This document shows positions 12,760-63,418 of a DNA stretch of 64,000 nt, one piece after another; the first letter of the stretch is position 1; every line of letters starts with the position of its first letter. Below the pieces are notes generated by a model, which saw only the letters and a program-made list of their open reading frames with translations, searched no databases and had not been told where the DNA came from. The position numbers and the translations under genes are program-made. Source of the stretch: Escherichia coli (GTDB lineage: Bacteria > Pseudomonadota > Gammaproteobacteria > Enterobacterales > Enterobacteriaceae); NCBI RefSeq assembly GCF_045037415.1, contig NZ_CP173438.1; one strand, 5' to 3'.

Positions 12760-15657
12760 TCACACCGAACGCGATTCAGGAGGAACTGTTTGGTAAATAG
12801 CACCACCGGATCTTGGGGGCGCTGTGATTATTACAGTATTGCTATCACCGTCATTTTTGAATGTCACTTTACCAGTAGCATCAACGCCTACCCAGGAGGC
12901 CGAGCTTGAAAACGAATAATCAGCCGCCGTTTTTCCTGGTGCAAAGTTGTCATTATTCAACTGATAATACGCCCCGGTAAATCCCTGCGAAGGGAATGAA
13001 GCTGTCGGTAGGTTTGCACTATTCACTGACACTGTACCCGTCATTGGTCTGGTTTCCGCGCTAATGAATTCTATCGTGGTACTCAGACCCGCCTGATGAA
13101 CACCATTCAATACGGGGATCAGCGTTGCGATACCCTCTCCGCCTCCTGTAACAGTAGCTTTGTAATCACCGTTGATATTTTGACTGTAATCAATTGCGCT
13201 AATTTTCATATAGGGCACGTTTGTACCTGATTGCACAAATTCTATCCCTTAAGAAACTTTGATCGGATTGCCTGATATATCGTGCAGAACAAGATGTAGC
13301 TCAGCACTATCGGTAAAGTCCCCTTTCAGTGATGACTGGTTGTTCTTAAGGATGGACTGCGAGGCGTCTGCTGGGCCTGCCACTAGCGATATATCTACTG
13401 TTTGCATTCCACCTGCGCTTATGACTGCGCTTACAGTGACGCTCCCTGTTATCGCTCATCTCACGTTTGTTGTCGCGATTCCGTTTTGATCGGTCACGGC
13501 TGTTAATGACGTTAATGTGGTGGAGCCGCTTTTTAAGGCGAAGTACACAGTGAGACCTTCGATCAGGTTACCACTGCCATCCTCAACCGTTGCCTTTAAG
13601 GTACTTAAATCACTGTTGGTGGCGGCGATAGTCGACGGATCAGCGATAAAGCTAGCAACATGTGCGGTGCTTGGGTTGCCAGTAACCTTCACGGTTGTCT
13701 GTGTCTGTATTGTGACGCCGTTATGGAACGATGCAGTCACCGTATATGTACCGACTTTATTGCTGGTCAGAACGACTGGAGCCTGATCTGAAGAGTTGGT
13801 TCTCACTTTTCCGCCACTTAACGTCGCACCTTCTAGCGTTACGCTAAAGTTGATGACCTGACCCTCCACTGGAGTGCCATTTGCAGAGGTTAGCGTTGCC
13901 GTCAGAGTAGCGCCTTTAGGAGCATTGACACCGATAAGCGGACTGGACGTGAGTGTCAGTTTTTCATCAATAGCCTCCAGTTGTTTCTCAAGTGAAGCTC
14001 CATTCGCTAGGGATGCTTTTACAGTATACGAGCCGTTTCTTTCAGACGTCATGGTGACCTCGGCTACTCCCTGCGTATTAGTAGAGACCGTGTTCTGGCT
14101 GATGATCATTTGCGAGGATGGCGCTGCACTGAATGTCGCGGGTTGATGCGTCACCGGGTTGCCAAACTGGTCGTTAACGTGAGCTTTAACTGCTATGTCT
14201 TGTGCGACCATGACCTGACCTTCAGGTATCTCCTGACTGGTAATCGTCGCAGAATTAACATCTACCTTGGCATTCAGTAATCGCGAGATGACTTCAGTAG
14301 GTTTATCTGCCAGAGAGGCTGAAACTGTTTTTAGTCCGACCTCGGTGCTTGTCACAAGAATTTCAGCAAAAACCTGATCATCCGTTTCAACGCTGGTGCT
14401 GCTTAGCGTGACGGAGGTTCCACGGAAATTAACTTTTATACCTTCTACTGGGTTGCCGTTTCCATCAGTCACTGTTGCTTGTAGCCTGGTCATTCCAATG
14501 TTATTGGCGATGAAATTGTCCTCGGTAACGTTAAGATTAACCTGCGCAGTGAGCGTATCCGCAGTAAAGTTCACCACCAACTGCTCACTCTTACCGCCAA
14601 CCATCGATGCTGTCACGGTATGAGCGCCTGCTTTTGTACCTTTCAGCGTGACTTTCGCTTTGCCATCGGCATCAGTAACCGCTTTGTCGCCATCGCTCAG
14701 CGTGAAGTTCGCCTTCACATCTTCCGGTAGAGTAAATGTTACCTCAGTGTTGGCTATCGCATTGCCCTCTGTATCAGCGACGGTGCTGTTAGTGTCGTGA
14801 GATCGTTATTGTCGGCAATCACCGGATCCTTCGAGGCTGCCAGCGTGATTTCAGCATTCGTGACGTTCGGCACATAGTTCACTGTTTGTTGCATCGAATC
14901 GCCATTTTCGAGGGTTGCCGTCACGGGAGTTCTTCAGGCTGAAATCTTCATCCACGCCCAGCGTGATTCTTGCGGTACCGAAGCGGCTTAACCAGTCTGT
15001 CATTACCCCTGAAGCCTGAGAAGAGGCCCATCCACGTGCTATGTTTGCCGCTTGCTCGCTGTTCATATCTTCGGCGAGCAGAGATCCAATTAGCTGTGAA
15101 GTACTGGCTATCTGTTGCTCAAGGTTGCCACTGCTGTTACCCGGCGGCGGGGTTAAATTTTTTTCACTAACTTGTGCCTGGACATCCAGTTCATCACCCG
15201 GGCGGACATTACGAACAAACGTACGAAACTGGTTGAGTTTGCGTAACAGGGGGGTATCTATAATTTGTTGCACAGGACAAATATATCTGGCTTCTGTACA
15301 GAGTCTTAAATTTTGACCATAAATAAAACCGTCACTGTCAAGCATGCATAGTTTATCAAGTAGGTCTCCCACAAACTGCCTGAATTTTATTTTTCCATTA
15401 AAAGTTTGTATCTTCTTAAGTATCACAGGAGACTGGAAATAGATCGATAGTAGGATGTTGCCACTCAAGGCATGACGATAAATATCGCTAGGAGTAATTT
15501 TTTGTTTTATGGCTTTGGTAGTGATCTCAACTGCTTCCGTTATAGTGACCCATGTTGACATATAATGAGTTATAAGCAATGGCTGATATTTTTTTGACAT
15601 AATATTATCTCCTTCTACACAACAATTCGTTCCGTTAAGGAAAAAGATTGGTGTCAC
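12760..15657 (-). pseudogene. yeeJ: yeeJ-like inverse autotransporter adhesin remnant: large internal deletion plus frame breaks
   Basis: Three consecutive minus-strand ORFs (14851-15657, 13456-14718, 12760-13236) carry LysM-like N-terminal and Big-repeat C-terminal segments in different frames; total about 2.9 kb versus about 7 kb recalled for intact yeeJ. Confidence 0.65.
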
Positions 15658-18401: not shown

Positions 18402-19979
18402 TTATTGGGCAGAATGGCGATAACGGTCGACGGCGAGAGCCGTCAGGCGTTTTTTGTCTATCTTGCCGACGGCGGTGAGCGGCCAGTGGTCCAGAAACTC
18501 GATTTGGTCAGGAATTTTCCACGCGCTGAGCCCCATACGGGTCAGTTGTTGACGCAACTGCTGATAGTCAGTTGGCACCTGCTGCGCGATGATAAACGCG
18601 CAAATCCGCTCGCCAAGCAGCGTGTCCGGCGCGGCGACCACCGCGCAATCTTGCACTTCCGCTAAACGCAGCAGTGCCGATTCCACTTCAGCCGCGGCTA
18701 TTTTTTCTCCGGCGCGGTTGATCTGCTCTTTTATGCGTCCCTCAACGTGCAGGTTCCCCACCTCATCCAGCCTGACATTGTCGCCTGTGCGGTAAAACCC
18801 TTGCGCGGTAAAGGCCTGCGCGTTGTGGGCAGGGGCGCGGTAATAGCCCGAAATGGTATAAGGGCCGCGCGTTAACAATTGCCCGGTTTCGCCCGGCGCG
18901 ACGTCGTTCTCGTCTTGATCAACGATGCGGATTTCATCCAGAGGGGACAACGGGCGCCCCTGGCTGTGGAGAATGGTGGCATGCGGATCGTCCAGCCGGG
19001 TAAAACAGAGCAGGCCTTCCGCCATACCGAAAACCTGTTGCAGGGTACAGTCAAAGGTGGCGATAACCTGCTCAGCAAGCGTCGGGTCGAGCCGGGCGCC
19101 GCCTGCCTGAATGACGCGCAGCGACGAAAGGTCGCTGTCTTCCCACTCCCTGGCCTGCACCCATAATTGCGCCAGCGCCGGAACCAGGGCGACGTGAGTC
19201 ACTCTTTCCTGCGCGATTAAAGGCATCACCTCATCACAGCTGGCGCTGTCGGTCAGCACCACTTTTCCGCCGCAGGCAAGCGTTCCCAGAATACCGGGGC
19301 AGGCCAGCGGAAAGTTATGCGCCACCGGGAGGACGGCGAGATACACGCTCTGTTGGCTGATGCCGCACAGTTCAGCAGAAGCGCTGAAGTTATAGCTATA
19401 GTCGGCATGTCGGCGCGGGATGAGTTTGGGCGTGCCGGTTGTGCCGCCTGAGAGCAACAACAACGCGGTGGCGGAAACATCAGGCTGCGGCCATGCCTGT
19501 CGCTCACCGTGAAGGGAGAAGAGCGGCGTAAAATCGTCGCTCACGGTCTCTCCAGCGACCAGAACATGACGCAAGCAGGCGTGTTTGTGCGCCATCTGTC
19601 GGGCCAGCTCTGCGAGGTTTTCCCCGTGAATAACGTAAGCGACGGGTTGCGCCAGCTCAATCAGCGCGTCGATATCCAGAGCCCGTTGCGAGGGCATCGC
19701 CAGCACGGGGATAACGCCCAGTCTTAACAAGGCGAACAGCAGGGTAACAAACGCGTTGTCGTTGGGAAGCTGCACAATTACATGCTCCCCCGAACGCAAA
19801 CCCAGTGATGACAGACCTGCGGCAAGTTCGTCAACTTGTGCATCAAGCGCGCTGTAGGTTAACGACCCCTTTGCATCAACGACGGCAATTCGCGAGGCAT
19901 AACGGGCCGCCCAGTGGCGCAACTGTTCGGCAATGGGTAAGGGATACTGTTCAATCAGAGATTCAAAGGAAGAATTCAT
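18402..19979 (-). CDS. ybtE: Salicyl-AMP ligase (adenylation enzyme of yersiniabactin synthesis)
   Basis: 525-aa ORF with adenylate-forming enzyme motifs (LLSGGTTGTPKLI, YRTGD); operon position. Confidence 0.9.
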   Translation of the reverse strand: MNSSFESLIEQYPLPIAEQLRHWAARYASRIAVVDAKGSLTYSALDAQVDELAAGLSSLGLRSGEHVIVQLPNDNAFVTLLFALLRLGVIPVLAMPSQRALDIDALIELAQPVAYVIHGENLAELARQMAHKHACLRHVLVAGETVSDDFTPLFSLHGERQAWPQPDVSATALLLLSGGTTGTPKLIPRRHADYSYNFSASAELCGISQQSVYLAVLPVAHNFPLACPGILGTLACGGKVVLTDSASCDEVMPLIAQERVTHVALVPALAQLWVQAREWEDSDLSSLRVIQAGGARLDPTLAEQVIATFDCTLQQVFGMAEGLLCFTRLDDPHATILHSQGRPLSPLDEIRIVDQDENDVAPGETGQLLTRGPYTISGYYRAPAHNAQAFTAQGFYRTGDNVRLDEVGNLHVEGRIKEQINRAGEKIAAAEVESALLRLAEVQDCAVVAAPDTLLGERICAFIIAQQVPTDYQQLRQQLTRMGLSAWKIPDQIEFLDHWPLTAVGKIDKKRLTALAVDRYRHSAQ

Positions 19980-19982
19980 GCG

Positions 19983-20786
19983 TCACCTTTCTGAAGTACT
20001 GGGCTGTTTTTGCCACGCGGTCATTGCAGAAAATGCGTGGGGAAAATGGCGGACAATCTGCGTAAAAAAGGACCGGGCTTGTTGAATGGGATAGAAATGA
20101 TCGCCGTCAATCACCACCGGGCCTGTAACGTGGCTCAGCCACTGACGCCAGGCATCGACCTGCTGCCAGGAGGCTTCGCGATCGTGGCTGCCGCACAATA
20201 ACAGCGCAGGCGTGCGCAGCGGCGGACAGACGTCGGGCGAGTCGTAGTGATAGCTCTCGGTGGCGTAAAAATCAGCGCGCAGAAGAGGAAGAAACAGCGA
20301 CATTAATTCCTGGTTTTCCCGCAGTTCAGGAGAACATCCGCCAATGTCTATCAGCTCAGCGATAAAGTCGGCATCATCGCGATGGCTGAGCTGGCGTTCA
20401 GAATGCAGATGCGGGGCATGGCACCCGGAAATAATCAGTCCTTGTGGCGCAAGCCCCCGTTGCTCCAGAAGTCGGCAGGTTTCAAACGCCACCTGCGCCC
20501 CCATGCTGTGCCCGGCGAGTAAAAGCGGCGTGTCAGGCGATACGGATGCTTCCAGCTCGTTCGCCAGCAGTGCCGCCAGTTGTGTAATGTTTCTGAGCGG
20601 TTCCAGATGGCGAAGGCGATCGCGCCCCGGCCAGGTCACCAGAGAAAGCGCGCAATCAGCCAGTTGCTCAGCTTGCCAGTGGCGAAACGCGCTACTGCTG
20701 CCGCCAGCGAAAGGGCACATGACCAGATGCGCAGTATTGCCGTTCCGGGCGGGCCACAGCGGGATGCACATTGCAGATTGCGTCAC
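19983..20786 (-). CDS. ybtT: Type II thioesterase
   Basis: 267-aa ORF with alpha/beta-hydrolase GHSMG motif and GDHFYP; overlaps the ybtU stop. Confidence 0.85.
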   Translation of the reverse strand: MTQSAMCIPLWPARNGNTAHLVMCPFAGGSSSAFRHWQAEQLADCALSLVTWPGRDRLRHLEPLRNITQLAALLANELEASVSPDTPLLLAGHSMGAQVAFETCRLLEQRGLAPQGLIISGCHAPHLHSERQLSHRDDADFIAELIDIGGCSPELRENQELMSLFLPLLRADFYATESYHYDSPDVCPPLRTPALLLCGSHDREASWQQVDAWRQWLSHVTGPVVIDGDHFYPIQQARSFFTQIVRHFPHAFSAMTAWQKQPSTSER

Positions 20787-21883
20787 AGCGCCTCCTTATC
20801 ATCATCGTTGTAGAAACCGGCTAACCGGTCGTGGTGCGGCGGCGTCAGGCGTCTGATCTCCGCATTGCCGGTCTTACGTAAAATCTGCTGCCATAAACGT
20901 GATAACGCGATCTGATGTACGCTTTGGCAGGCCGCTGGTGGATGTTCGCCCGCCAGATGGCTGCGCAACTGGTGTAGCAACCAGCTGACGCCCTCCGGCC
21001 CGACGGTTTCGCAGCAGTCGCGCCAGCTCAGGGGCGCCGCGCTGCGCGTCAGACCCGGCAGATCGCGCAGGATCTCCGGTCTGCGGTAGAGGCTGTGGGC
21101 GTTCTCCTGATGGTCTGCGACAAACAGGCTGGATGACCAGATGACGGGGCCGTAGCTCGCCTCCAGCGAAAGATGACCTTCCGGCCAGCCCAGCAGCAGG
21201 CGGTGCATGATAAGGCTATGCATATCTGGATCGTCAGGATCGAGATAGCGCTGAAGCAGCAGGCAGGCTTCTCCCTCCGGCCAGAAGAGTCTCAGACAGT
21301 GAAAATCGCTAAAGCTGCCAACCACGTCGCACTCCACGGCGGCGGCATCAACGCCCAGAGCCAGCAACAACAAATCCAGAGTGGAGTAGAGCAACTGTCG
21401 GCTGGTGGTGGCGTGGACCACCTGCGGCGTCTTAGCCAGACAGCGACGCAGCTGCTGCGCATCGCGAAGCCATGTGCGTCCCGCGCGCGTATGCGGATAA
21501 AACGTGTTTACCCAATAGCAGCAGCCCTGTTCCTGCGCCAGCGTTTGTAAGGAACTGATGTCATCCGGGTGGAGGGGATGCTCCTGAATGACGTGTACGC
21601 CGCGCGTCAGAAAGTGTCTGGCAAGCTGCGTACCGGTTCCTCCGGCGACGGTCGAACGCACGACAATACAGGCGATATCCGGCATCCTGGTTATCTGTTC
21701 CGGCGAGGTATACAGCGGAATGCCAAACGCATGAGCCAGCTCTCTTGAACGGGCGCTTCCCTGCGCCAGCAGGCCGACCAGTTCCAGCCCCTCCGGGGGC
21801 TGCATAAAGGCATTCAGGTACATTTCGCCAAATTTGGCGCCCACAATCAGTACGCGTTGTTTTGGGGAGGCGGACGGCATCAT
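20783..21883 (-). CDS. ybtU: Thiazolinyl imide reductase
   Basis: Start at MMPSASPKQRVLIVGAKFGEMYLNAF gives 366 aa; the track ORF extends 20 codons further upstream. Confidence 0.85.
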   Translation of the reverse strand: MMPSASPKQRVLIVGAKFGEMYLNAFMQPPEGLELVGLLAQGSARSRELAHAFGIPLYTSPEQITRMPDIACIVVRSTVAGGTGTQLARHFLTRGVHVIQEHPLHPDDISSLQTLAQEQGCCYWVNTFYPHTRAGRTWLRDAQQLRRCLAKTPQVVHATTSRQLLYSTLDLLLLALGVDAAAVECDVVGSFSDFHCLRLFWPEGEACLLLQRYLDPDDPDMHSLIMHRLLLGWPEGHLSLEASYGPVIWSSSLFVADHQENAHSLYRRPEILRDLPGLTRSAAPLSWRDCCETVGPEGVSWLLHQLRSHLAGEHPPAACQSVHQIALSRLWQQILRKTGNAEIRRLTPPHHDRLAGFYNDDDKEAL

Positions 21884-22074
21884 AACGTGTTCTCCGGTTG
21901 CGTTGAGGTTGCGCAAAGCCAGCGCGTAATGTGTTGCGCACAAGCCTGAACGTGGGGGGCTTCCATCATGATTTGCCAGTGGCTGGCTTCAATCACAGCG
22001 TCGTCGGCGTTGTTTATCCAGCCCTGCCACTCGGTTTCTGCTGGCGTCCAGTGCGCGGGTTCTCCCGGCGGCAT
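21880..22074 (-). other. irp1: Displaced C-terminal ~60 codons of the irp1 thioesterase domain in a shifted frame
   Basis: Track ORF ...PPGEPAHWTPAETEWQGW...TL ends exactly at the ybtU start; removing one G from the run at about 22063-22066 would restore a single ORF of about 3163-3164 aa, the length recalled for HMWP1. Confidence 0.6.
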
Positions 22075-25000
22075 ACACCATGAGACAGGGGACCGGAACG
22101 CTTTCGCCCGGCGTATGCTCAGTCAGTAAACGCAGCAGATGCGCGATGTTGTCGAGCCACGTTTCTGCCGCTTGCAGCGTCAGGTTTTGCGACACCATAC
22201 CGGCCGTTTTAGCGAGGCTGATAAAGTCGGCAAGCTGGCTGTCGGGCGTCTGCTGGTCGAAATGTTCGGGCAGTGCCAGAGGCGTTTGTCCTTCGGCTAA
22301 CAGGCGCAGCAGGGCCGCCCGGTTTTCGCAACAGAAATCCTGTCGGCACACGGGATCGATTAACACCATCCGAACCTGCTCGCCTTTGGCGTACAGGCGT
22401 TGTGCGGCGCCCGCCGCAAGAAACGCGCCATACGACCAACCCGCCAGCACATAAGGGCCGTGAGGCTGCTGACGACGGATGCACCCGACATACTCATCGA
22501 TCATCTGGTCGAGCGTGGCAAAGCGCTGCGGCGATTTTGCTTGCAGGCCGAAAACGCGCCTGTTCAACGCGCTAGCGAGCGGCAGCCAGGCGCTGATATC
22601 GCCGTCTGAAGCGTGGAAGACAAACAGGGTTTCCTCACCGTCGCCCTGGCAAAGGGGTATCGGGTTGTCCTCTCCTGACGTAGCCGCCTGTAGATGGGCG
22701 CAGAAGTCGCTCAGCGTCGAATGGCTGAACAGATCCTGAAGGTTAGCCCTGGCAATCCCTCTCCGGTTTAGCTGCGCGACCATCCTTGTCGCCATCAGGC
22801 TGTCGCCGCCCAGTTCGAAAAAGTCGTGATGCCTTGCCACGGGGCGAGACAGCAGCGATTGCCAGAGTTCAGCCACCTGTTTTTCCAGTGCCGGATTCCC
22901 CCCGGCAACTGGCGTGGGTTTGGCTGGCTCAGTCGGCGCATCAGACGGGGCATGCAGCGGCGTAAATAACGCTTCTCTTTGCCGGATCTGTAAAATGGGC
23001 AGACCGGTGCCAAAGCGCTGCTGTAAATAGCGGCTCACGGCTTTTTTATCCGGGCGATTTACGCCAGGCGAACGCGCTACCAGCAGATGCTGGCGCAGCG
23101 GCGACGATTCCTGCGCGGGCCACGCCAGCTCGTTTGCAAACCCGGCCTGAACGAGAACCTCCTGCCATGCGGAGCGGGTGAGCATCGGTTTCTCATCACG
23201 GCGGCGGAAATCGCGGTATCCGCTTAATCCCTCAATAAAGCCCACGCTCGCCAGCTGGAATACGCTGTTTCGCTCCGTCGCTTCAACGATCAGCAAACGT
23301 CCGCCGGCTTTCAGCAACAGTTTTAATCTGCGCAACGTCTGGACGACATGGCTGGCGTCGTGGAGCACATTGACGGCAACGATCAGGTCGTAACCCGCCT
23401 CCGGGTGGGCGGTGAAATCCAGCGGCTGGTTGATGTCGAACAAGGCATAAGACACCTGCGATTCATCATGGAAACGGGCTCTGGCGTCATTGAGGAACTG
23501 CGCGGAGACGTCCGTGAAGTGGTACGACTGCCGCGTGTTCCGCGTGGCCTTCAGCACCGGCGCGGTAGTGGCTGCGGTTCCGGCGCCAACCTCCAGAATC
23601 CGTTCTGCGCTGCACAAGGCGGCAATCTGCGCGGTATAGCGATTCAGACAGGCGCTGGCGGGGTTGTCGCGATACAGCGCGTCGGTAACGCGATGCTGCT
23701 CGTTGAACAGCAATTCCAGCGGAGAACACTGCCCGGAGAAGAGGGCGTCGTGCCGGGCGATGCAGGTTTCCAGATACTGCGCCAGCGCCTGGCTCCATTG
23801 GCTTTGCGGGCACGCTTCCTGAGGCTCAGGAATCTCGCTGAGCGGAATGCGGCAGCGCCAGCTTTCACCTTCGCGGATTAACCACTCTCTTTCCGTCAGA
23901 CACTGTAGCCACTGGCGCAGCAGACGCTGGTGAGACGCTTGCGCGGACAGCGCCTGTACTACTGCGCTAAAGCGATGGGCGATCTCCGGCGTGGTAAACA
24001 GGCCGTGACGATTTAGCGTAGCCGCGATCCCCTGTAGCGCACGCGCCTCCAGCCAGCGCCAGGTCGCCTCCAGCTCATCAAGCTGCGCCTGCTCAGGCAA
24101 CGGCAGCGCCAGTTGGGTAAGTTCGTGCTCATCAGGCATCGCCGCTGATGGCGAAGGATCGTCGGCCATCACGATATCCAGCGTCAACGCGCCCTGTTCG
24201 GTTATTTCCGCTCTGGCCTGCCGGATGCCGGGGTATTCGAGCGTCGCCTGCTCAATATCCCGCAGGTCGTAGTCCGCCTGCGCGTTCAGCGGCCAGCGTC
24301 GGCGGGGAATGTGCCTGGCGATGCCGCTGGCGAGAGTCTTCAGGCTTTCAGGGGCGGCGATGACGGCTTGCAGGATGGCGCAATAGTCATTAAACATCGC
24401 CTCGGCAGCGCCGGGTTCCAGCACGTTGTCCATGCAGTACCAGCTAAACATCAACTCGCCGTCGCTCTCCATGACCTGATGATCCAGCCAGACCTGCGGC
24501 GTTTGCGTGAATACATAGCAGGGTTCGCCGAACAGATGGCTCATCGCCTGATCGATAGTCATGCCTTCCAGCGTCATCCCCAGCATACTGGTAAACACTA
24601 CCGGCATCAGCGGTTGACGTTGTGATCCGCGCAGGCGGCCCAGCTCACGGATCACCTCAACACCGTTCATTTCACTGTGCGCCATGTTTTGCCAGAGGCG
24701 CTGTTGGGTCTGTTGCATCTGCTCTTGCAACGTCACCGGCGCTGAGAAGTTAAAATCAACCAGCGTGACGGAGGTAAAATCACCAATCAACTGGTTGATT
24801 TGCGGATGGATCGGCTGGCGATTGAAGAACGTCAGGTTCAGCGTAAATGTTGTGGTACGGCTCCAGCGCTCAAGGGTGGCGGCAAACAGCGTGAGCAGCG
24901 CGGCAGACGGTGTGACGCCTTGCTGCTGCCAGCGCTGTTTCACGGCCTGCCATTCTGTCTTGCCGATCGTCGATTTGAAGGTGGTGAAGTGTGGCGTTTC

Positions 25001-28000
25001 CGGGGGCGTCTCAACCACCGGCAGCTCTGGCGCTAAGGGCAGTTGCGGCAGTTTTTCCTGCCAGTAATCCCAGGCATCGTGCCATGCCGATGTCTGTCGG
25101 CGCGCCTGTTCAGCCATCACATAATCACGGAAGGTAATAGCGAGCGGCGCCAGCGTTTCACCGCGCCAGACCTGCGCCAGGTCGTCCATCATGACTTTAA
25201 AACTCTGCACATCAAACTGCAAAAGGTCGAGGTTCATATGCAGACGGTAATGGCAATCGTCGATTTCGCTGACCACCAGCTCAAAAAGAGGCCACTGGTC
25301 GGCAGGCAAAACGCGATAGCTCAGTTCATGCCGCCGTTTTTCCAGTGCGATGCGCTGTTCTTCCGGGGAAAGCGCGCGCAGATCGTCACGCGGGATGTGA
25401 TACTCCGGCGTTGTCGCCAGGATTCGCTGCTGCCCGTCGGCATCAACCACCATACGCAACATATCGTGGCGTGCGATGAGCTGGTTCCATGCTTTCTCCA
25501 GTATGGCGAGATCGAACTCATCGTGGCGTTTATCCCACTCAAACAGGACGTGACAGGCGACGCCGCCATAGCCAATGAGGTGGGTTCGCCCCAGCCAGTA
25601 GGCGTGCTGAATGGGCGTCAAAGGGAAGGGCGCATAACGCTCGTCGGCGTCGTGCCGCAATACTTCCGGCTGCGAAGCGGCAGGCGTCGCCTCTGGCTTA
25701 GAACAGATAAGCTGCGTGAGTCCATGAGGAGACAGATCCTGCCACGCCCGTTCCGCATTGATGCGTACACCCAGGTAGTGCTGAATATCGCTACTGAGTT
25801 CAAGGAAGAGCAGCGAGTCCATGCCGAGTTGCAACAGATCCTGGTTTGGATGCAGTGACGCCGGATCGCTCAGCCTTAGCTGAACCGCAATCCGCTTTTT
25901 CAGCCATGCCATCACCGCTGTTTCATCGCTCAGGCTGCCGTTAAAGGCGTTGTCATCAGCAGGAGGAATGACCGGCGTTGCGGCTTTTTCTGTGGCGCTG
26001 ATGTTAAACAGAGCCTGTTGTAACGGGGGCATTTTGTCGGTAAAAACGCGCATCGCCAGTCGCCACGGGGCGCCGCGCATCACCGCCTGTTCCAGGTGCC
26101 AGCAGCCTTCGGCATCGCTTAACGCGCCCATACCTCGGCTGGCGAGCGTCGCCAGCATTTCCGGCGTGGCCGCCCGACCGCTTTCTCCCCATGCGCCCCA
26201 GGCGACAGAGAGCGTTTTCGGCGCATCAAGGGTGGAAAACTGCTGGGCCAGCCCGTCCAGGTAGCCGCAGGCCAGCGCATGGGCGCTCTGACCCGGCGCG
26301 CCGAGGGTGGCGGCAGCGGAAGAGTAGAGAATAAGATAGCGTCCGTCGTGGTTGCGCAGGGTTTGCAACAGTTGGCTTGCCGCCTGCGCTTTTACCGCGA
26401 AAACGGCAGCCAGCTGGTGGTCATCAAGCTCCTGCAAGGGCGCGTCAGCCAATACGCCAGCGGCATGAATCGCTCCGGCAATGCCGCCGTTGGCCGCCAG
26501 ATCGTCAAGAACCGTGGCCAGTTGCCCGGCATCGCCCACATCACAACGGCAGACGCGCGTCTGCCCGCCCTCCACGTCGCGTAGCCATGACTCATCCACG
26601 CGCGGTGCCAGCAGGGCGATGCGTCGCGCCCCTTTTTCTCTGAGCCAGTTCACGGCAAGGCGGCCTAATCCGCCAAACGCTCCGGTCACCAGATGCCAGC
26701 GGCTATCGCCGGTAAACACGTTTGCCGGTAATTCAGCGGCGCATCCCGTATTGGGCGTCAGTGAAGGGAGCCAAAGGGTGTCACCCCGTGCGGCGAGCCA
26801 GCGCTGTGATAGTGAGACTGCGCTCAACCCTTGATGCAGCGTTTCCCACGGGGTGTTTTCGGCGAGATCGATGGCGGCAAGCAACCGTTCCGGCTGTTCG
26901 TTGGCCGCGACGCGAAGCAAGGCCCATAGCGCGTGATGGGATGCAGAGAGTGCTTCATTTTCCTCGACTCGCCACGCGCGGCGAGTAACCACAATCAATC
27001 CGGCTGCGCTGGCGGTGAGCGCTGCTATCACTTTCTCCGCTAAGGCCAGCGTATCCTCGCTCTCCTCAACAATCATCAGTCGTGAAGAGGCGTGCGGATC
27101 GTGAATGATGCCGTATTGCGCCAGCTCGTCGCTGCGCGCAAGCGTACCGGCGCTGAAGCTAAAGGTAAGCGGATGGTCAATGCTGGCGACGTTGAGGGGC
27201 GTCCAGCGCCATTGATAATGCGTTTGCGGCGCAGGAAGAGGCGCGGCGGGCGATAGCGGCAGCCACTCGCCAGCAGGATGACGGGCTTCAACGCGCATCT
27301 GACCGCGGGAAAAGGCTTCGTTTTGCCAGCTTAAGCGAACCTTCCCCAGCCACTCCGGGGCGGCGACGGGGGGCGGTTCCACAGGCAGAGCGTCGCCATG
27401 ACGCTGTGAAAGCAGACGCCATGCCTCCTGCCAGCGGGCGTTAAACCGTTCGGGCTGACCTGCGCAATCAGACCAGTCGGCGAGATAATCACCGTTATCC
27501 GTCAGCGCCTGCCCCAACACGGGTTCTGATGGCGCGGTGAATGTTACGGCGCTAACCGCCTGACCGGGCAGCGTGGCGAGAATGATATGTTCGCTCATCC
27601 CGGCGGTCGGGCTGCCATCCTGCGGTAGCCACGCCACTTTGCTGAATCCGGCGTGGCGGCACTGTTGTTGCCACTGAGCGGTGGTGAGGAATAACTCACC
27701 TTCGCGGGCGTCGAGATCCTGTAGCGGAAGAACCAGCGGGCCGAAAACGAAGTCAAACAGACGCATTGGCTGGGTGATTTCGCGCATCAGCAGGCGCCCG
27801 CCCGGCTTGAGCAGGGGGCGCAGATTATCGAGCGTGCGGCCAATATGGCGGGTGGCGTGAATCACGTTCGCTGCCACGATAAGATCGTAAGACTGTGCCT
27901 GGAAACCCTGAGACTGCGCCTCTTTTTCGAGATCCAGCTCGCTATACTTCACAAAATCATAGTCGGCGAATTTCTGCTGGGCGCGACGGGTGAACAGCGC

Positions 28001-31000
28001 CGAGATATCGGTGAAATGGTACTCCAGTGCCGGAACGCCGTTGAGTTCCGGCAGCAGCCACGCGGTGGTGCCGCCGGTTCCGCCGCCAACTTCAAGAATA
28101 CGCAACGGCTGGCGGGGCTGACGCGTCTGGACAATGCCGCGTAATACCCCGGCGGCGATTTGGTTGAAATAGCGGCCAAAGCTGAATTCCTGATACAGCA
28201 CTTCCACGCCGTCGGAGGCGCTTTGCGGGAAGATAATCGCCACCGGTTCTTCCGCGCCGCTCATCATTTCATATAACCGATCGCCGGCACGGGCGATGGT
28301 GTCGGGAATAGCCTGAAAACCTTCACAATAACCGGCAAGTTCCGTCAGCAGTGATTCCCGCTGTTGATGTTCAATGGGGCGGGCGCGGACGTATCGCCCG
28401 TCGGTGCAGCGGTAATCGCCGTCGACCACGCAGTTATTCAGCAGGCGCTGGAGTAGCTGCTGGTAGCGGGGCAGCAGACGTCCACGGCGCATGATGGTCA
28501 TGGCGTCCACGCCGTTCTCAATGGCATCGCCGGTACAGCGTTGTACCAGTTGATCGACGTAGATGGCGTGCAGTCGCGTGGCGCACTGTTTAAGCGCATC
28601 CAGGCGAGGGAGATCGAGCGCTGTCGCGGCGCGACTCGCCACCTCCAGCCCGGCAGACAGCGCTGCGTCGGCAGGCTCGCAGGCCGGGGAGACGCGCTCT
28701 TTCCAGTAACGTTCAGTATCAAACGGATAACATGGCGCAGCGATACGTTGTCCATCGCCCGCCAGCAGGTCGGCCCACGGTAGGGCGACGCCGGCAGCGT
28801 AAAGCTGGAGCAGGGCCTGATTGAGGACATCGCTCGCCTCTTTGTTACGCCGGGCGCTGGCTATCCAGTATGCGTTATCGCGGTATTCGCGCTGCCCGCA
28901 AGCAACCAACTGGGCATCGGGCCCCATCTCCAGAAAAACGCGGGCGCCGAGCTGATGCGCCACCTGAATACTCTGGATAAAACGCACCGGCTGGCGCATG
29001 TGTCGGCGCCAGTAATCCGCCTGGTTGAGCGTTGACTCATCAATGACGTCGGCGGTGAGCGTGGAAATAATCGGTATTTGCCCCGGCTCCGCGTGCAGTC
29101 CCGCGCAGGCGTCCTGGAACCGATCGAGTATCGGCTCCAGTAAAGCGGAGTGCGCCGCACCGGTTACGCTCAGGCGACGATAGTTAATGTCATGCTGCGA
29201 GAGCGTGGCGCAAAATACCGCGAGACGGGCTTCCGGCCCGGAAAATACCGTATGTTGCGTACCGTTGTTGGCGGCGAGATCCAGCTCAAACTGGCGAGCC
29301 AGCGGCATCAGCGTGTCTTCGTCTGCAAATACCGCCACCATCGCGCCGCTTGCGCACTGCTGCATTAGCGCGCCGCGCCGACAAACCAGTGGCATGACCT
29401 GTTCAATCGTATAGTGTCCGCAGACAACGGCAGCGGCAAATTCACCGACGGAATGCCCAATGGCGAAGTCTGGCTTCAGTCCTTCAGCACGCCAGTGCGC
29501 CGCCATCGCGATTTCAAACGCGACAATCGCCGGCTGCGCCCAGGCCATATTGTCCAGCTGCGCCGAATCGGGGTTAAACATCGCTTCGCGCAGTGACGGC
29601 GTGAGCATTTCGCTACAGGCGGAAAAACAGCGATCCAGCGTGTCGGCAAACGCCGTTGAGTGCTGGTACATCGTTTGACCCATAGTGCGCCAGTGCGAGC
29701 CCTGGCCGGTAAACAGCCACACCTGCTTGCCGCTGGCGCCGTGGCCGCTGTAAACCAGCGCCCCCGATTTCTCACCGGCCCAGGCGCTGAGCGCCTCGGC
29801 GGTTTCACGGTTTAATGGCGCCGCCAGGCGGAAGGGGAGATCGAGACGGCGCGCGTGCAGGGCTGTGAAGGCCAGAGAGCTGGCATCCGCATTCTCTCTC
29901 AGCGCCCCGGCATAATCCGTCGCCAGCCGCCGCAACGCGCTGTCGCTGGCGGCGCTGAGCAGCAGCGCGGTACTTTTTCTGCCGCTATCCGTATTGGGGA
30001 GGCGCGCGTTGAGCGCGTCGGGCAGCGAGGCGACGATCATATGGCAGTTGGTGCCGCCAATACCAAAGGAGGAGACGCCCGCATAGCGCATTTCGTCCTG
30101 CCATGCCTGTGCCGACACCGGTATGGTAAAGGGGCTCTCTTCAAGTTTCAGCGCCGGGTTGGGGGTGTGAAAATTCAGTAAGGGAGGAATTTGCCCGCGA
30201 CTGACTGCCAGAACGGTTTTCAGCAGTCCGGCAATGCCCGCCGCGGTATCCAGATGGCCCATGTTACTTTTCACGGAACCGAGCGCACAGCGCTGATCCT
30301 GCGGGCGAGGCGCATAGACGTTGCGTAACGCTTCAATTTCAATCGCGTCGCCCAGCGGTGTGCCGGTGCCGTGGGTTTCAATGTAACCTACCTGCCTGTC
30401 GTCGATGGCCGCCAGCATTAACGCCTCTTCGATGACTGCTTGTTGCCCTGCGACGGAAGGGGCGGTATAGCCGACCTTTCTGTTGCCGTCGTTGTTGACC
30501 GCGCTGGAGAGGATCACCGAGATAATCGGATCGCCTGACAGCAGCGCGTCTCTCAGGCGACGCAGCACCACGCAGCCGAGACCGTTACCGGCCCAGGTGC
30601 CCTCAGCCGAGGCGTCAAAGGGACGACAGTGACCATCAGGAGAGAAAATCATTCCGGGCTGGTAGCGGTAGCCTGCCTGCTGGGGGAAAGAGAGCGCCAC
30701 GCCGCCGGCAACCGCCATATCGGATTCGCCTGCGCGCAGGCTTTCACAGGCCAGATGCACGGCAACCAGCGAGCTGGAGCAGGCGGTCTGTACCGATAAC
30801 GCCGGGCCGTGCAGGTTGAGTTTGTACGCGGCGCGGGTGGCAATATAGTCTTTATCATTGCCCATCAGAGATTGCAGACCTTTTACCTGCGCGACTTCTG
30901 TCACGTTCAATGCTTCGCGACCGGGGTAGGTACTCATCCGGGAAGAGGCGAAAACGCCGGTCTTATGGGGGACGGCGCCGGGGGCATAACCGGCATGTTC

Positions 31001-31372
31001 CAGCGCATGCCAGACCGCCTGCAAAAACAGGCGCTGCTGCGGGTCCATCGACTCCGCTTCCTGTCGCGAATAGCCAAACAGGGTGGCGTCGAAGCAGTCG
31101 GCGTTGTCTAACACCGTACCGATATTGACATAATGAGGATCGTCAATGATGGCGGCATCCAGACCGACGGCCAGAAGCTCTTCGCGCGTAAAGCGTCGGC
31201 TGCATTCACGACCTTCCAGCAGATTTTGCCAGAACGTTTCGCCATCCGGCGATTCAGGAAAATGGCAGGCGTAGCCGATAACCGCGACAGGTTCGCAGTC
31301 CGGGTAGTGTTGAGCGATCGATGCATCAATGGAATCTGCTGTCGGCGCAGAAGAGAAGCGCAAGTTATCCAT
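21989..31372 (-). CDS. irp1: HMWP1 polyketide synthase/NRPS of yersiniabactin synthesis; main frame ends early with about 23 aberrant residues
   Basis: 3127-aa ORF with KS (DTACSSS), AT (GHSVGE), methyltransferase, KR, carrier-protein, condensation/cyclization and thioesterase (GWSYG) motifs; see the 21880-22074 feature for the displaced C-terminal codons. Confidence 0.9.
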   Translation of the reverse strand: MDNLRFSSAPTADSIDASIAQHYPDCEPVAVIGYACHFPESPDGETFWQNLLEGRECSRRFTREELLAVGLDAAIIDDPHYVNIGTVLDNADCFDATLFGYSRQEAESMDPQQRLFLQAVWHALEHAGYAPGAVPHKTGVFASSRMSTYPGREALNVTEVAQVKGLQSLMGNDKDYIATRAAYKLNLHGPALSVQTACSSSLVAVHLACESLRAGESDMAVAGGVALSFPQQAGYRYQPGMIFSPDGHCRPFDASAEGTWAGNGLGCVVLRRLRDALLSGDPIISVILSSAVNNDGNRKVGYTAPSVAGQQAVIEEALMLAAIDDRQVGYIETHGTGTPLGDAIEIEALRNVYAPRPQDQRCALGSVKSNMGHLDTAAGIAGLLKTVLAVSRGQIPPLLNFHTPNPALKLEESPFTIPVSAQAWQDEMRYAGVSSFGIGGTNCHMIVASLPDALNARLPNTDSGRKSTALLLSAASDSALRRLATDYAGALRENADASSLAFTALHARRLDLPFRLAAPLNRETAEALSAWAGEKSGALVYSGHGASGKQVWLFTGQGSHWRTMGQTMYQHSTAFADTLDRCFSACSEMLTPSLREAMFNPDSAQLDNMAWAQPAIVAFEIAMAAHWRAEGLKPDFAIGHSVGEFAAAVVCGHYTIEQVMPLVCRRGALMQQCASGAMVAVFADEDTLMPLARQFELDLAANNGTQHTVFSGPEARLAVFCATLSQHDINYRRLSVTGAAHSALLEPILDRFQDACAGLHAEPGQIPIISTLTADVIDESTLNQADYWRRHMRQPVRFIQSIQVAHQLGARVFLEMGPDAQLVACGQREYRDNAYWIASARRNKEASDVLNQALLQLYAAGVALPWADLLAGDGQRIAAPCYPFDTERYWKERVSPACEPADAALSAGLEVASRAATALDLPRLDALKQCATRLHAIYVDQLVQRCTGDAIENGVDAMTIMRRGRLLPRYQQLLQRLLNNCVVDGDYRCTDGRYVRARPIEHQQRESLLTELAGYCEGFQAIPDTIARAGDRLYEMMSGAEEPVAIIFPQSASDGVEVLYQEFSFGRYFNQIAAGVLRGIVQTRQPRQPLRILEVGGGTGGTTAWLLPELNGVPALEYHFTDISALFTRRAQQKFADYDFVKYSELDLEKEAQSQGFQAQSYDLIVAANVIHATRHIGRTLDNLRPLLKPGGRLLMREITQPMRLFDFVFGPLVLPLQDLDAREGELFLTTAQWQQQCRHAGFSKVAWLPQDGSPTAGMSEHIILATLPGQAVSAVTFTAPSEPVLGQALTDNGDYLADWSDCAGQPERFNARWQEAWRLLSQRHGDALPVEPPPVAAPEWLGKVRLSWQNEAFSRGQMRVEARHPAGEWLPLSPAAPLPAPQTHYQWRWTPLNVASIDHPLTFSFSAGTLARSDELAQYGIIHDPHASSRLMIVEESEDTLALAEKVIAALTASAAGLIVVTRRAWRVEENEALSASHHALWALLRVAANEQPERLLAAIDLAENTPWETLHQGLSAVSLSQRWLAARGDTLWLPSLTPNTGCAAELPANVFTGDSRWHLVTGAFGGLGRLAVNWLREKGARRIALLAPRVDESWLRDVEGGQTRVCRCDVGDAGQLATVLDDLAANGGIAGAIHAAGVLADAPLQELDDHQLAAVFAVKAQAASQLLQTLRNHDGRYLILYSSAAATLGAPGQSAHALACGYLDGLAQQFSTLDAPKTLSVAWGAWGESGRAATPEMLATLASRGMGALSDAEGCWHLEQAVMRGAPWRLAMRVFTDKMPPLQQALFNISATEKAATPVIPPADDNAFNGSLSDETAVMAWLKKRIAVQLRLSDPASLHPNQDLLQLGMDSLLFLELSSDIQHYLGVRINAERAWQDLSPHGLTQLICSKPEATPAASQPEVLRHDADERYAPFPLTPIQHAYWLGRTHLIGYGGVACHVLFEWDKRHDEFDLAILEKAWNQLIARHDMLRMVVDADGQQRILATTPEYHIPRDDLRALSPEEQRIALEKRRHELSYRVLPADQWPLFELVVSEIDDCHYRLHMNLDLLQFDVQSFKVMMDDLAQVWRGETLAPLAITFRDYVMAEQARRQTSAWHDAWDYWQEKLPQLPLAPELPVVETPPETPHFTTFKSTIGKTEWQAVKQRWQQQGVTPSAALLTLFAATLERWSRTTTFTLNLTFFNRQPIHPQINQLIGDFTSVTLVDFNFSAPVTLQEQMQQTQQRLWQNMAHSEMNGVEVIRELGRLRGSQRQPLMPVVFTSMLGMTLEGMTIDQAMSHLFGEPCYVFTQTPQVWLDHQVMESDGELMFSWYCMDNVLEPGAAEAMFNDYCAILQAVIAAPESLKTLASGIARHIPRRRWPLNAQADYDLRDIEQATLEYPGIRQARAEITEQGALTLDIVMADDPSPSAAMPDEHELTQLALPLPEQAQLDELEATWRWLEARALQGIAATLNRHGLFTTPEIAHRFSAVVQALSAQASHQRLLRQWLQCLTEREWLIREGESWRCRIPLSEIPEPQEACPQSQWSQALAQYLETCIARHDALFSGQCSPLELLFNEQHRVTDALYRDNPASACLNRYTAQIAALCSAERILEVGAGTAATTAPVLKATRNTRQSYHFTDVSAQFLNDARARFHDESQVSYALFDINQPLDFTAHPEAGYDLIVAVNVLHDASHVVQTLRRLKLLLKAGGRLLIVEATERNSVFQLASVGFIEGLSGYRDFRRRDEKPMLTRSAWQEVLVQAGFANELAWPAQESSPLRQHLLVARSPGVNRPDKKAVSRYLQQRFGTGLPILQIRQREALFTPLHAPSDAPTEPAKPTPVAGGNPALEKQVAELWQSLLSRPVARHHDFFELGGDSLMATRMVAQLNRRGIARANLQDLFSHSTLSDFCAHLQAATSGEDNPIPLCQGDGEETLFVFHASDGDISAWLPLASALNRRVFGLQAKSPQRFATLDQMIDEYVGCIRRQQPHGPYVLAGWSYGAFLAAGAAQRLYAKGEQVRMVLIDPVCRQDFCCENRAALLRLLAEGQTPLALPEHFDQQTPDSQLADFISLAKTAGMVSQNLTLQAAETWLDNIAHLLRLLTEHTPGESVPVPCLMVYAAGRTRALDASRNRVAGLDKQRRRRCD

Positions 31373-47764: not shown

Positions 47765-47855
47765 GGAGAGATGCCGGAGCGGCTGAACGGACCGGTTCTC
47801 GAAAACCGGAGTGGGGGCAACTCCACCGGGGGTTCAAATCCCCCTCTCTCCGCCA
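47765..47855 (+). tRNA. serU: tRNA-Ser, long variable arm (serU-like)
   Basis: About 91 nt, ggagagatgccggagcggctgaacgg...ggttcaaatccccctctctccgcca; acceptor stem pairs and ends in CCA; integrase immediately downstream. Confidence 0.85.
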
Positions 47856-47907
47856 AAATTCAATCACTTACACATCATTAAGTCAGTGACAAAAATCACA
47901 CTTGGAA

Positions 47908-48933
47908 TTACTTGGAATATTTTCTTGGAATATTTTCAGGTAACGGGACATCAAGTGTTGGTGAAACTTTAACCTTCCTGTCATAGATTAGCACTTGCCC
48001 CTCGGTTTTGTGACCAGAGAAAAGTTGCTTATCCCGGCTGCTTCCTTCATAGTCTGAAATTCCTTTCGCCTTCAGATCATGAAAGGTGAAGTCGGTTAAA
48101 ATACCTGAAATTTTGCCTGCGCGATTTCTTGCTTCTACCCACATTTCGTTAAAGCCTTTGTACATATATCGGTTGCCATATTGATTGCTGATTACATAGA
48201 CGGATGCTGGTAACTGTTTTGCTTTTTCGATCGCCGCCTGTAATCGTGGACTCCATGCTTTTATCTGTTTTTTCCCTGTTTTCCCTTGCTGGATAAAGAT
48301 CCCGTCGTTTCCAATCTGCTCCCATTTCAGTGATAACACATCGGAAACCCTCGCTGCACACAGATAGGCAATTTCCATTGCGATAAAAACAGGAAGAGGT
48401 GCAACGCTTAATACTGCCTGGTATTCTTTGTCGGTTACATATCGTTCGCGGTTTTTGGCCTTGAATTTACTTACACCTGCACATGGGTTAGCCTTCACGT
48501 ACCCTCGCTCATATCCCCAACTGTAAACGCGGGACATACTGCTTTTTTCATGGTTGGCTTGCGTTTTGCTCTGTTCCCCTCTTTTGTCCATGTATCGACG
48601 GATGTGTTCTGGTTTTATGGAATCCGCTGGTACCTTACCGAATACGGCAAGCAACTTTTTTTGATGTTGCAGATAATCTTTTTGTGTTCTTGGGCTAAGG
48701 TCACTGTAACAGGCGCTGGCGAGGAATTTTTCCCACAAGCGACCGAATGTCATTGCACGATCGCGATTATTTACAGTTTCCTCATACTTTTTCCATAAAG
48801 CAGCTAAACCATCCTTGATGGCGGTTAGTGTTACAGATTCTCTGGATGTTGGTTTCCATACATAACTATATTTATTTGGGTATACATTTGGAGGTAATTT
48901 TTCGTGTTCAGGATTTTTCCTTCGTCTTCCCAT
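47908..48933 (-). CDS. int: Phage tyrosine integrase
   Basis: 341-aa ORF directly next to the tRNA-Ser 3' end, with tyrosine-recombinase C-terminal region. Confidence 0.85.
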   Translation of the reverse strand: MGRRRKNPEHEKLPPNVYPNKYSYVWKPTSRESVTLTAIKDGLAALWKKYEETVNNRDRAMTFGRLWEKFLASACYSDLSPRTQKDYLQHQKKLLAVFGKVPADSIKPEHIRRYMDKRGEQSKTQANHEKSSMSRVYSWGYERGYVKANPCAGVSKFKAKNRERYVTDKEYQAVLSVAPLPVFIAMEIAYLCAARVSDVLSLKWEQIGNDGIFIQQGKTGKKQIKAWSPRLQAAIEKAKQLPASVYVISNQYGNRYMYKGFNEMWVEARNRAGKISGILTDFTFHDLKAKGISDYEGSSRDKQLFSGHKTEGQVLIYDRKVKVSPTLDVPLPENIPRKYSK

Positions 48934-49136
48934 CAGATCGCACCAAAATTCGGCTCTACCTCGCGTGGTGGTAAAGTTTTATTGCAGGTAAATAGATCCC
49001 GGCTGACAATCGGTTTGCCACTACGATTGGTATAGAACGGAAGCCCGTTTTCCATTAACCATTTTCGCTGGTGACTTGCATATTTGCAGCCCGTTAATAT
49101 TAGCAATTCATCTTTGGTTAAAAATAAGCTGCTCAT
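48933..49136 (-). CDS. xis: Putative excisionase
   Basis: 67-aa ORF immediately upstream of int, typical int-xis pairing; family not verified. Confidence 0.5.
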   Translation of the reverse strand: MSSLFLTKDELLILTGCKYASHQRKWLMENGLPFYTNRSGKPIVSRDLFTCNKTLPPREVEPNFGAI

Positions 49137-49194
49137 AGCTATATCTCATAACCGCCGCTAACTATATGCGGTTAGCGGCGATCAGGGTTGAACA

Positions 49195-51669: not shown

Positions 51670-51748
51670 TTTGTTTTACCTCATTACAGATTTAAGGGTG
51701 AACAAATCCCTGCCATTGCTGGCATATAAAAATGAAACTGGATATTAA

Positions 51749-51958
51749 TTACGGCGCTGTTTTTAATCCTGCCGGGATTTCGTTATTGTCCATGTGAATA
51801 ACTTTATCGACCGGATAACAGTTGCCGGGAATTTTCTGTTCCGCTGCGGCAGCCATGCATTCTTTCATTGAGTTGTACATGCCGGTGATTGCATCAAGCG
51901 ACTCACCAGTATTGAGATATACAGTCAGAATGAGTATGAATAATGTGTTCATCGCCAC
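51749..51958 (-). CDS. Small membrane protein, possibly ydfD-like
   Basis: 69-aa ORF with N-terminal hydrophobic helix, directly downstream of the dicB-like gene as ydfD is in Qin. Confidence 0.35.
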   Translation of the reverse strand: MAMNTLFILILTVYLNTGESLDAITGMYNSMKECMAAAAEQKIPGNCYPVDKVIHMDNNEIPAGLKTAP

Positions 51959-52137
51959 TCTCCGAAAATACCGAGTTTAAGAAGGGCAATTCTGGAGAGT
52001 ATGGAATTGTCATTCAGCAGGTAGGGTTCATATTTTCTCATATTGATTGCATCCTCGGTGAAATCCCTGTTACTGAGCAGAACACCAATATTAAAGCACC
52101 CGTCAGACGTATTAACGTTTGGTAGTGACGTTTCCAT
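51949..52137 (-). CDS. dicB: DicB-like cell-division inhibitor
   Basis: 62-aa ORF; METSLPNVNTSDGCFNIGV...FTEDAIN resembles recalled Qin DicB (62 aa); located downstream of the DicF homolog. Confidence 0.55.
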   Translation of the reverse strand: METSLPNVNTSDGCFNIGVLLSNRDFTEDAINMRKYEPYLLNDNSILSRIALLKLGIFGEWR

Positions 52138-52147
52138 TATCGCGTCC

Positions 52148-62774: not shown

Positions 62775-62788
62775 GTGGAGAACTCTAA

Positions 62789-63367: not shown

Positions 63368-63418
63368 ATTGTGATAAGCTCGGGACGAAAAGCGAACTGA
63401 GCAACATAATAGTAAGAA

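Follow-up and report, generated by a model that had tools for sequence, protein, structure and literature searches.

An apparent frameshift in irp1 of an ST131-type Escherichia coli genome is probably an assembly error at a methylated GGTCTC motif

The type IIS system RM.EcoMI / Eco31I of Escherichia coli ST131 recognises GGTCTC/GAGACC (Forde et al. 2015, mBio, PMC4659465). In the ST131 strain EC958, GAGACC is 100% m6A-methylated by M1.EcoMI, which is identical to M1.Eco31I, while the product of M2.EcoMI is GGTm5CTC, with GAGm6ACC on the opposite strand (PMC4659465). Methylated motifs of this kind matter to long-read sequencing. The methylation errors of Oxford Nanopore reads are restricted to a strain-specific methylation motif, and the ambiguity falls on the purine directly 5' to a methylated adenine; replicate assemblies of one strain disagree there and the remainder is essentially error-free (Lohde et al. 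2024, Genome Res, PMC11610573). Genuine pseudogenes of irp1 and irp2 form a third point of reference. They occur in Enterobacteriaceae with the high-pathogenicity island and combine a premature irp1 stop with an otherwise intact ybt cluster.

We analysed a window of 64,000 nucleotides from an E. coli chromosome in which irp1, encoding the yersiniabactin PKS/NRPS HMWP1, is frameshifted as written. It resembles all three systems in part. GGTCTC/GAGACC is the motif at all three aberrant sites found, the spurious irp1 base adjoins the m6A and m5C positions, and the window is 100% ST131-like, although RM.EcoMI itself is encoded outside the window, in GI-leuX, and is relevant here only as a source of base modification. 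The locus shares with the published nanopore errors the confinement to one motif, the ambiguous purine, the disagreement between sister assemblies and an otherwise almost error-free sequence. It differs in that the motif is that of Eco31I/EcoMI, with m6A and m5C on opposite strands, in that an inserted base gives false frameshifts rather than a substitution alone, and in that the platform is here presumed. Compared with genuine irp1/irp2 pseudogenes, the lesion is irreproducible and motif-linked, and the corrected protein is identical to the functional allele. The comparisons below indicate that the irp1 frameshift is almost certainly an artefact and not a genuine feature of the strain.

The irp1 reading frame and the thioesterase tail

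As written, the minus-strand irp1 ORF (Table 1) ends in ...VYAAGRTRALDASRNRVAGLDKQRRRRCD*. It departs from the native HMWP1 frame at residue 3105 and stops after 23 aberrant codons, so the original prediction, made from the letters of the window, was right that one extra base splits the gene. It had also located the expected tail in another frame, and this is where we found it: the ORF at 21880..22074 ends in ...PAHWTPAETEWQGWINNADDAVIEASHWQIMMEAPHVQACAQHITRWLCATSTQPENTL*, and its TGA (21882-21880) overlaps the ybtU start codon. In the alignment with intact irp1, the inserted base is a minus-strand A (plus-strand T) at 22060/22061, and it changes the intact GGGAGACCC to GGGAGAACCC. On the plus strand, GGTCTC (minus GAGACC) has become GGTTCTC (minus GAGAACC) at 22058..22064, and the affected Eco31I/EcoMI site corresponds to irp1 codons 3103-3105. 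The irp1 frameshift is thus due to a single, apparently spurious T/A within a GGTCTC site.

Table 1. Coordinates of irp1, its neighbour ybtU and the GGTCTC/GAGACC sites in the window.
Feature	Position	Strand	Remarks
irp1 (HMWP1 yersiniabactin PKS/NRPS)	21880..31372	-	9493 nt as written, equal to 9492 nt plus one apparently spurious base
irp1 ORF, uncorrected	21989..31372	-	3127 aa; final 23 codons (22060..21992) out of frame
Displaced native HMWP1 C-terminus	21880..22059	-	59 codons plus stop (P3105...L3163); holds thioesterase H3131
ybtU	20783..21883	-	Intact; ATG (21883-21881) overlaps irp1 stop (ATGA)
Second aberrant site, GGTTCTC for GGTCTC	47794..47800	+	T inserted into the tRNA-Ser(CGA) anticodon loop (gene 47765-47855)
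Third aberrant site	60968..60973	+	AGAACC vs GAGACC in ST131 references; just 3' of hokD stop codon
Intact GGTCTC in ybtE	19545..19550	+	GAGAACC at the same site in the strain 446 assembly
Remaining intact motif sites	13552-13557, 14084-14089, 15363-15368, 30578-30583		

The alignment to reference irp1 that the prediction had proposed therefore confirmed the one-base lesion, but at a different position and with a different base, since a G in the run at 22063-22066 had been named. A miscounted G homopolymer is rejected, as the extra A/T stands in a run of one to two bases. The residues expected at the junction, AAG-EPAHW, likewise do not agree with the reference protein, which reads AAGRPAHW. 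Deletion of the spurious base restores an HMWP1 of 3163 aa that is 100% identical to WP_000369500.1 (SK1144, Ecol_AZ146; the ST131 allele). This agrees with the anticipated length of about 3163-3164 aa, although the base to be removed is A, not G. The gene order irp2-irp1-ybtU-ybtT-ybtE-fyuA is kept, with irp1 between irp2 and ybtU. The ybt genes beside irp1 (fyuA, ybtPQXS, ybtA, irp2 and ybtU/T/E) are intact.

As had been proposed, the displaced codons form the end of the HMWP1 thioesterase domain. This C-terminal alpha/beta hydrolase matches PF00975 (E = 1.8e-20), and a match to PF12697 crosses the frameshift point. The serine of its GxSxG motif (GWSYG, S2980) precedes the shift, and the distal H3131, in EASHWQIM, lies in the displaced tail. 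H3131 is probably the catalytic His, which bears out the suggestion that the lost segment may include this residue. Comparison with the EntF and DEBS thioesterases gave a weak local alignment, in which the residues just before H3131 match, at a local score short of significance, those preceding the EntF residue that we take to be the catalytic His.

Were the insertion real, irp1 would be a pseudogene and its thioesterase would be 59 residues short at the C-terminus; with the catalytic His lost, release of yersiniabactin would be impossible, and the strain would be a siderophore 'cheater' that keeps FyuA and YbtPQ. We consider this improbable, even though the window sequence as given is frameshifted and a change of A to AA is unlike the classical error in a long homopolymer. 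The position of the lesion would also suit a loss of function, as H3131 falls within the lost segment and the finished siderophore is released by the HMWP1 thioesterase domain (PMC10136090). Evidence against a real mutation comes from the other motif sites and from related assemblies, as described below.

A real frameshift might also be offset by a +1 ribosomal slip at GGG-AGA, giving near-native HMWP1. Judged from the sequence alone, GCC GCC GGG AGA ACC presents a rare AGA after a slippery GGG_A, where the P-site tRNA-Gly could re-pair on GGA; GGG followed by GAA CCC... would then return to the normal frame. The shifted arrangement is, however, unconserved: about 2,240 of the 2,266 complete E. 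coli genomes that carry this stretch have the in-frame GGG AGA CCC (AAGRPAHW) in a single ORF. Slippage would moreover yield AAGEPAHW rather than the native AAGRPAHW, and the evidence for an artefact applies in full. We therefore regard such a slip as so unlikely that it can practically be disregarded.

Changes at other GGTCTC sites in the window

Only four events distinguish the 64,000 bases of the window from ST131 strain Ecol_AZ146. Three of these fall in GGTCTC/GAGACC sites, at 22060 (irp1), 47796 (tRNA-Ser) and 60968-70 (P = 1.7e-9), and both single-base indels are the identical change of GGTCTC to GGTTCTC. As in long-read methylation errors, further discrepancies of the window (47794-47800 and 60968-60973) thus lie on the same motif as the first. 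This concentration at a methylated motif speaks against a real irp1 mutation, as does the finding that the same assemblies are aberrant at another GGTCTC, in a conserved tRNA. ARAGORN reported the tRNA gene of the window as 'tRNA-???' and the reference copy as tRNA-Ser. The ybtE gene of strain 446, annotated as 'frameshifted', shows GAGACC changed to GAGAACC at another motif site.

Changes were specific to the full hexamer, affecting three of eight GAGACC sites and none of the 56 other AGACC sites (p = 0.0013). EcoP1I, the type III enzyme of phage P1 that recognises AGACC, was rejected as the modifier because only GAGACC sites are altered and the literature assigns GAGACC to Eco31I/EcoMI. Dam and Dcm were likewise set aside; neither GATC nor CCWGG is present at the irp1 site.

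The EcoMI methylase cassette, a methyltransferase pair of the Alw26I/Eco31I/Esp3I family, is annotated in EC958 (4977699-4980504) and was found in 634 of 5,426 complete E. coli genomes (about 12%), including ST131 and Nissle 1917. Among its carriers are the affected assemblies 439, Z135-2, Esc7 and Esc25, as well as the closest relatives of the window. Because of its ST131 identity, the source genome itself presumably carries Eco31I-family methylases. The window sequence matches ST131 genomes; none of the 5,426 is identical to it throughout, and its best ST131 hits depart from it by the motif errors. The irp1 lesion sits at a motif that is methylated in this lineage.

Could Eco31I sites instead change in vivo, for instance by restriction-site avoidance or by error-prone repair where both strands are methylated, so that differences between sister assemblies reflect true heterogeneity? 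The alterations are strictly motif-linked, and GGTCTC is scarce in the window, with eight true sites observed against 19.2 +/- 4.7 expected. We nevertheless judge this very improbable. We know of no mechanism for erosion or hypervariability of Eco31I sites in vivo, Eco31I cleaves outside its recognition site, and one of the changes would inactivate the anticodon loop of a tRNA. In a more far-reaching form, sites with m6A opposite m5C would be mutation hot spots, and irp1, ybtE and tRNA-Ser would switch on and off within mosaic ST131 cultures; we give this just as little credence.

The irp1 and tRNA-Ser sites across complete E. coli genomes

We searched the 5,426 complete E. coli genomes with 54-nt probes spanning the sites. 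The exact irp1 insertion was present in 12 of the 2,266 genomes having this stretch. These twelve RefSeq genomes come from Egypt, Taiwan and the 'Esc' series, and PGAP labels their irp1 as 'frameshifted', which would favour a real mutation. At least three studies contributed to the twelve, and the exact insertion, taken alone, resembles a real allele. We rejected a lineage-marker allele common to the twelve because the probe revealed sister assemblies that vary at the irp1 site, and the same genomes at the tRNA site.

Aberrant readings occurred at the irp1 site in 29 of the 5,426 genomes and at the tRNA-Ser site in 48; 27 of the 29 irp1-aberrant genomes were also aberrant at tRNA-Ser (hypergeometric P = 1.5e-57). 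All aberrant assemblies (the Esc series, 439/446/447/463, 98194, A1.S1.126 and the UID series) have recent accession numbers. They group by study and accession era, not by lineage, and the tRNA-Ser site is aberrant in only 48 of the 634 cassette-bearing genomes; both observations argue against changes of the motif in vivo.

Near-identical sister assemblies did not agree on the irp1 site. The Esc assemblies are each about 5,156,5xx bp long, with the coordinate of the irp1 site within 2 bp, and give three readings of it (GAGAACC, GAAACC or GAACC). The 439/446/447/463 set is also inconsistent at this site. Across assemblies, the states of the irp1 and tRNA sites occur in every combination, which is incompatible with clonal inheritance. 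The identical insertion was furthermore found on two divergent ybt alleles, as more than 60 SNPs separate 98194 from the window over 24.5 kb of alignment, and a real mutation would therefore need to have recurred. A true pseudogene should carry the same lesion reproducibly and inherit it clonally, independently of technical error hot spots. The irp1 lesion is instead variable among sister assemblies and falls within an Eco31I motif that is methylated on both strands.

Proposed origin and consequences of the inserted base

The irp1 frameshift is very probably an error of the assembly consensus at a methylated GGTCTC, and not a mutation of the strain. We infer this from comparison of assemblies; the accession numbers of the affected ones gave no hits in a literature search for their sequencing platform. 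The source would be an ST131-type E. coli chromosome in which RM.EcoMI methylates every GGTCTC/GAGACC on both strands. In native-DNA long reads, most probably from Oxford Nanopore, the modified bases would distort the signal, and the basecaller would be undecided between G and A at the purine directly 5' of the methylated A. Consensus or polishing steps may then write GAGACC as GAAACC, GAGAACC, GAACC, GGAACC or AGAACC, and a copy of the motif written as GAGAACC in irp1 would produce the apparent frameshift.

Nanopore errors are known to cluster at purines that precede a methylated A ('RA/TY', e.g. RACC/GGTY; PMC11610573), and the change of GAG to GAA seen here fits this pattern. That a G/A ambiguity before methylated A is a known nanopore artefact (PMC11610573) also weighs against change of the motif in vivo. 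Most published nanopore errors linked to methylation are substitutions, and to explain an insertion one must also assume that a G/A ambiguity becomes 'GA' in the consensus step. In the literature on GGTCTC, nanopore and methylation, we found no report of GGTCTC as a nanopore error hot spot. The original prediction had allowed for a homopolymer sequencing error. A sequencing error is indeed favoured, but as an extra A/T in an Eco31I motif and not as a G-homopolymer miscount.

The real irp1 should be intact and encode a normal 3163-aa HMWP1, and the yersiniabactin locus should therefore be functional. The prediction of a thioesterase-dead HMWP1, and of a non-producer with fyuA and ybtPQ retained, is unsupported, as we attribute the frameshift to an assembly error at a methylated motif. 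The biology would thus be unchanged: the ST131-type yersiniabactin locus is best treated as intact, and neither a non-producer nor a cheater phenotype should be read from it. For curation, the change of GGTCTC/GAGACC to GGTTCTC, GAAACC, GAACC and similar forms provides a checkable signature. It would explain why irp1 and ybtE are falsely 'frameshifted', and tRNA-Ser is broken, in dozens of recent complete E. coli RefSeq genomes. In affected assemblies, GGTCTC sites would likewise bias virulence-gene presence/absence, pseudogene counts and cgMLST distances.

Extra base near the 3' end of irp1

Two ORFs divide the end of irp1, the yersiniabactin synthetase gene encoding HMWP1, as the original prediction had described, and the stop of the shorter one overlaps the ybtU start (ATGA). 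Of 5,426 complete E. coli genomes, 2,266 carry this stretch in a search with a 501-nt query spanning the site. The match covers all 501 bases in only 12 of them; in the remainder it covers 500 bases with a one-base gap. Alignment showed that intact irp1 of the reference genomes SK1144 and Ecol_AZ146 reads GCC GCC GGG AGA CCC GCG (AAGRPAHW) and that the window reads GGGAGAACCC, with one additional base at 22060/22061 (minus-strand A, plus-strand T), within the motif GGTCTC/GAGACC. The extra G proposed at 22063-22066 and the expected peptide AAG-EPAHW were both slightly off. With the A deleted, the product is a 3163-aa HMWP1 100% identical to WP_000369500.1, and the gene itself is an ordinary irp1. 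A compensating +1 slip at GGG-AGA is no more than a formal possibility.

Features of the window and its differences from ST131 strain Ecol_AZ146
Feature	Position	Strand	Location or product
irp1 long ORF	21989..31372	minus	3127 aa, C-terminal end ...VYAAGRTRALDASRNRVAGLDKQRRRRCD*
Second-frame ORF	21880..22074	minus	reads ...PAHWTPAETEWQGWINNADDAVIEASHWQIMMEAPHVQACAQHITRWLCATSTQPENTL*
T insertion, GGTCTC to GGTTCTC	22060		irp1
T insertion, GGTCTC to GGTTCTC	47796 (site 47794-47800)		tRNA-Ser(CGA) anticodon loop
GAGACC to AGAACC	60968-60970 (site 60968-60973)		directly 3' of hokD stop codon
Synonymous SNP	23198		irp1, off motif

Changes at GGTCTC in the window and in other assemblies

Only four difference events separate the 64,000 bases of the window from Ecol_AZ146, and three of them fall at the motif (P = 1.7e-9), altering three of its eight sites. 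By comparison, none of the 56 other AGACC sites was changed (p = 0.0013). The tRNA-Ser gene (47765-47855) is called 'tRNA-??? (cg)' by ARAGORN in the window and tRNA-Ser (cga) in the reference. The change beside hokD is without coding consequence. Real hypermutation targeted to GGTCTC would inactivate a tRNA; we know of no mechanism for it and regard it as extremely improbable. The window is ST131-type: its last 16 kb match O25b:H4-ST131 genomes perfectly outside the altered tRNA-Ser and hokD sites. The SNP replaces a plus-strand C by A, turning the minus-strand Pro codon CCG into CCT; it lies at no recognised methylation motif and occurs only in the window among the genomes compared.

The irp1 and tRNA-Ser sites were searched in the 5,426 E. 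coli genomes using 54-nt probes designed to force any 28-mer seed across the inserted base. The irp1 site was aberrant in 29 genomes and the tRNA-Ser site showed some aberration in 48, a list that includes 27 of the 29 (P = 1.5e-57). The 'Esc' assemblies have chromosomes of ~5,156,5xx bp and the same irp1-site coordinate to within 2 bp, and they read GAGAACC (n = 9), GAAACC (n = 8) or GAACC (n = 2). Strains 446 and 463 have GAGAACC and their sister 447 has GAAACC; at the level of the probe match, their sister 439 resembles 447, with the same 53-base match. UID2404240038 has GGAACC. Every combination of irp1-site and tRNA-site states is present, so the states are not clonally inherited. In strain 446 (NZ_CP183097.1), ybtE is annotated 'frameshifted' because GAGACC became GAGAACC at a site intact in the window (19545-19550), and irp1 has a further A5-to-A4 homopolymer deletion (window 26637). 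Several technical indels occur in the ybt locus of this assembly.

A real irp1 pseudogene is very unlikely. Twelve identical assemblies support it superficially, but the lesion is not reproduced among sister assemblies, the motif is a confounder, and the mutation would have to recur on two ybt alleles more than 60 SNPs apart in the aligned 24.5 kb. Judged from these sequence comparisons, the irp1 frameshift is almost certainly a sequencing error and not a real feature.

Eco31I-family methylation as a probable source of assembly error

GGTCTC is the Eco31I site. Its sites are scarce in the window, with five as written (13552, 14084, 15363, 19545 and 30578) and eight in truth (adding 22058, 47794 and 60968), where dinucleotide-preserving shuffles gave 19.2 ± 4.7. 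The deficit may possibly reflect restriction-site avoidance tied to the Eco31I-family system. ST131 strain EC958 has two methyltransferases, M1.EcoMI and M2.EcoMI, that match those of Eco31I at 100% identity, and SMRT sequencing found the GAGACC adenines 100% methylated (GAGm6ACC), with GGTm5CTC predicted on the opposite strand (PMC4659465). The EC958 cassette is annotated with three genes, for an Alw26I/Eco31I/Esp3I-family adenine methyltransferase, a C5 methyltransferase and a restriction endonuclease, and we found it in 634 of the 5,426 genomes. Among the matches listed, the full cassette is present in affected assemblies 439 and Z135-2, both methyltransferase genes in affected assemblies Esc7 and Esc25, and the cassette in the window's closest relatives (FDAARGOS_1265, S8, R12 and 2024CK-00184). 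Cassette matches in Esc7 (NZ_OZ369353.1) and Esc25 (NZ_OZ369279.1) lie in two separate places, the methyltransferase genes being contiguous and the endonuclease part elsewhere or interrupted; a methylase-only, restriction-defective state is suggested for the Esc clone.

Lohde et al. described strain-specific errors close to methylation sites in native-DNA nanopore assemblies, where the ambiguous base is typically a purine preceding A ('RA/TY', e.g. RACC/GGTY) and the outcome differs from run to run of one sample (PMC11610573). The change of GAG-m6A-CC to GAA-A-CC agrees with this pattern. Assuming a nanopore platform, GAGAACC would most simply be a consensus retaining both G/A alternatives. 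The irp1 'feature' belongs to a known artefact class, here at a motif, GGTCTC/GAGACC, for which a literature search found no report as an error hot spot. The original prediction's caveat of a sequencing error was right as to cause, but not as to kind and exact position, the error being an A/T in the GAGACC motif. The value of the finding is purely practical: GGTCTC sites in nanopore-only E. coli assemblies with Eco31I-family methylases yield false pseudogenes in RefSeq.

Thioesterase domain and neighbouring genes

The frame shifts after R3104 of HMWP1, downstream of S2980 (GWSYG) and upstream of H3131 (EASHWQIM). Pfam gave a PF00975 match and an alpha/beta-hydrolase match that crosses the shift point. 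The stretch directly preceding H3131 aligns weakly to an EntF stretch that ends immediately before the catalytic-His position. Since the HMWP1 thioesterase frees the finished siderophore (PMC10136090), predicting a yersiniabactin non-producer would be reasonable for a real lesion; with a sequencing error, neither this nor a truncated thioesterase is supported.

A lambdoid prophage integrated at tRNA-Ser (window ~47,900-64,000), typical of an ST131 subset, has genes for exonuclease, Rha, DicB, hokD, Rem and DUF968. Ecol_AZ146 has the prophage integrase annotated as 'frameshifted'; since the window shows no difference from it there, this defect is not a motif artefact. Adjoining fyuA, a yeeJ-like inverse autotransporter/Ig-like domain gene (12,794-15,601) carries the annotation of a frameshifted, internally stopped fragment in all genomes compared, including the older references SK1144 and Ecol_AZ146, and is a long-standing real pseudogene.
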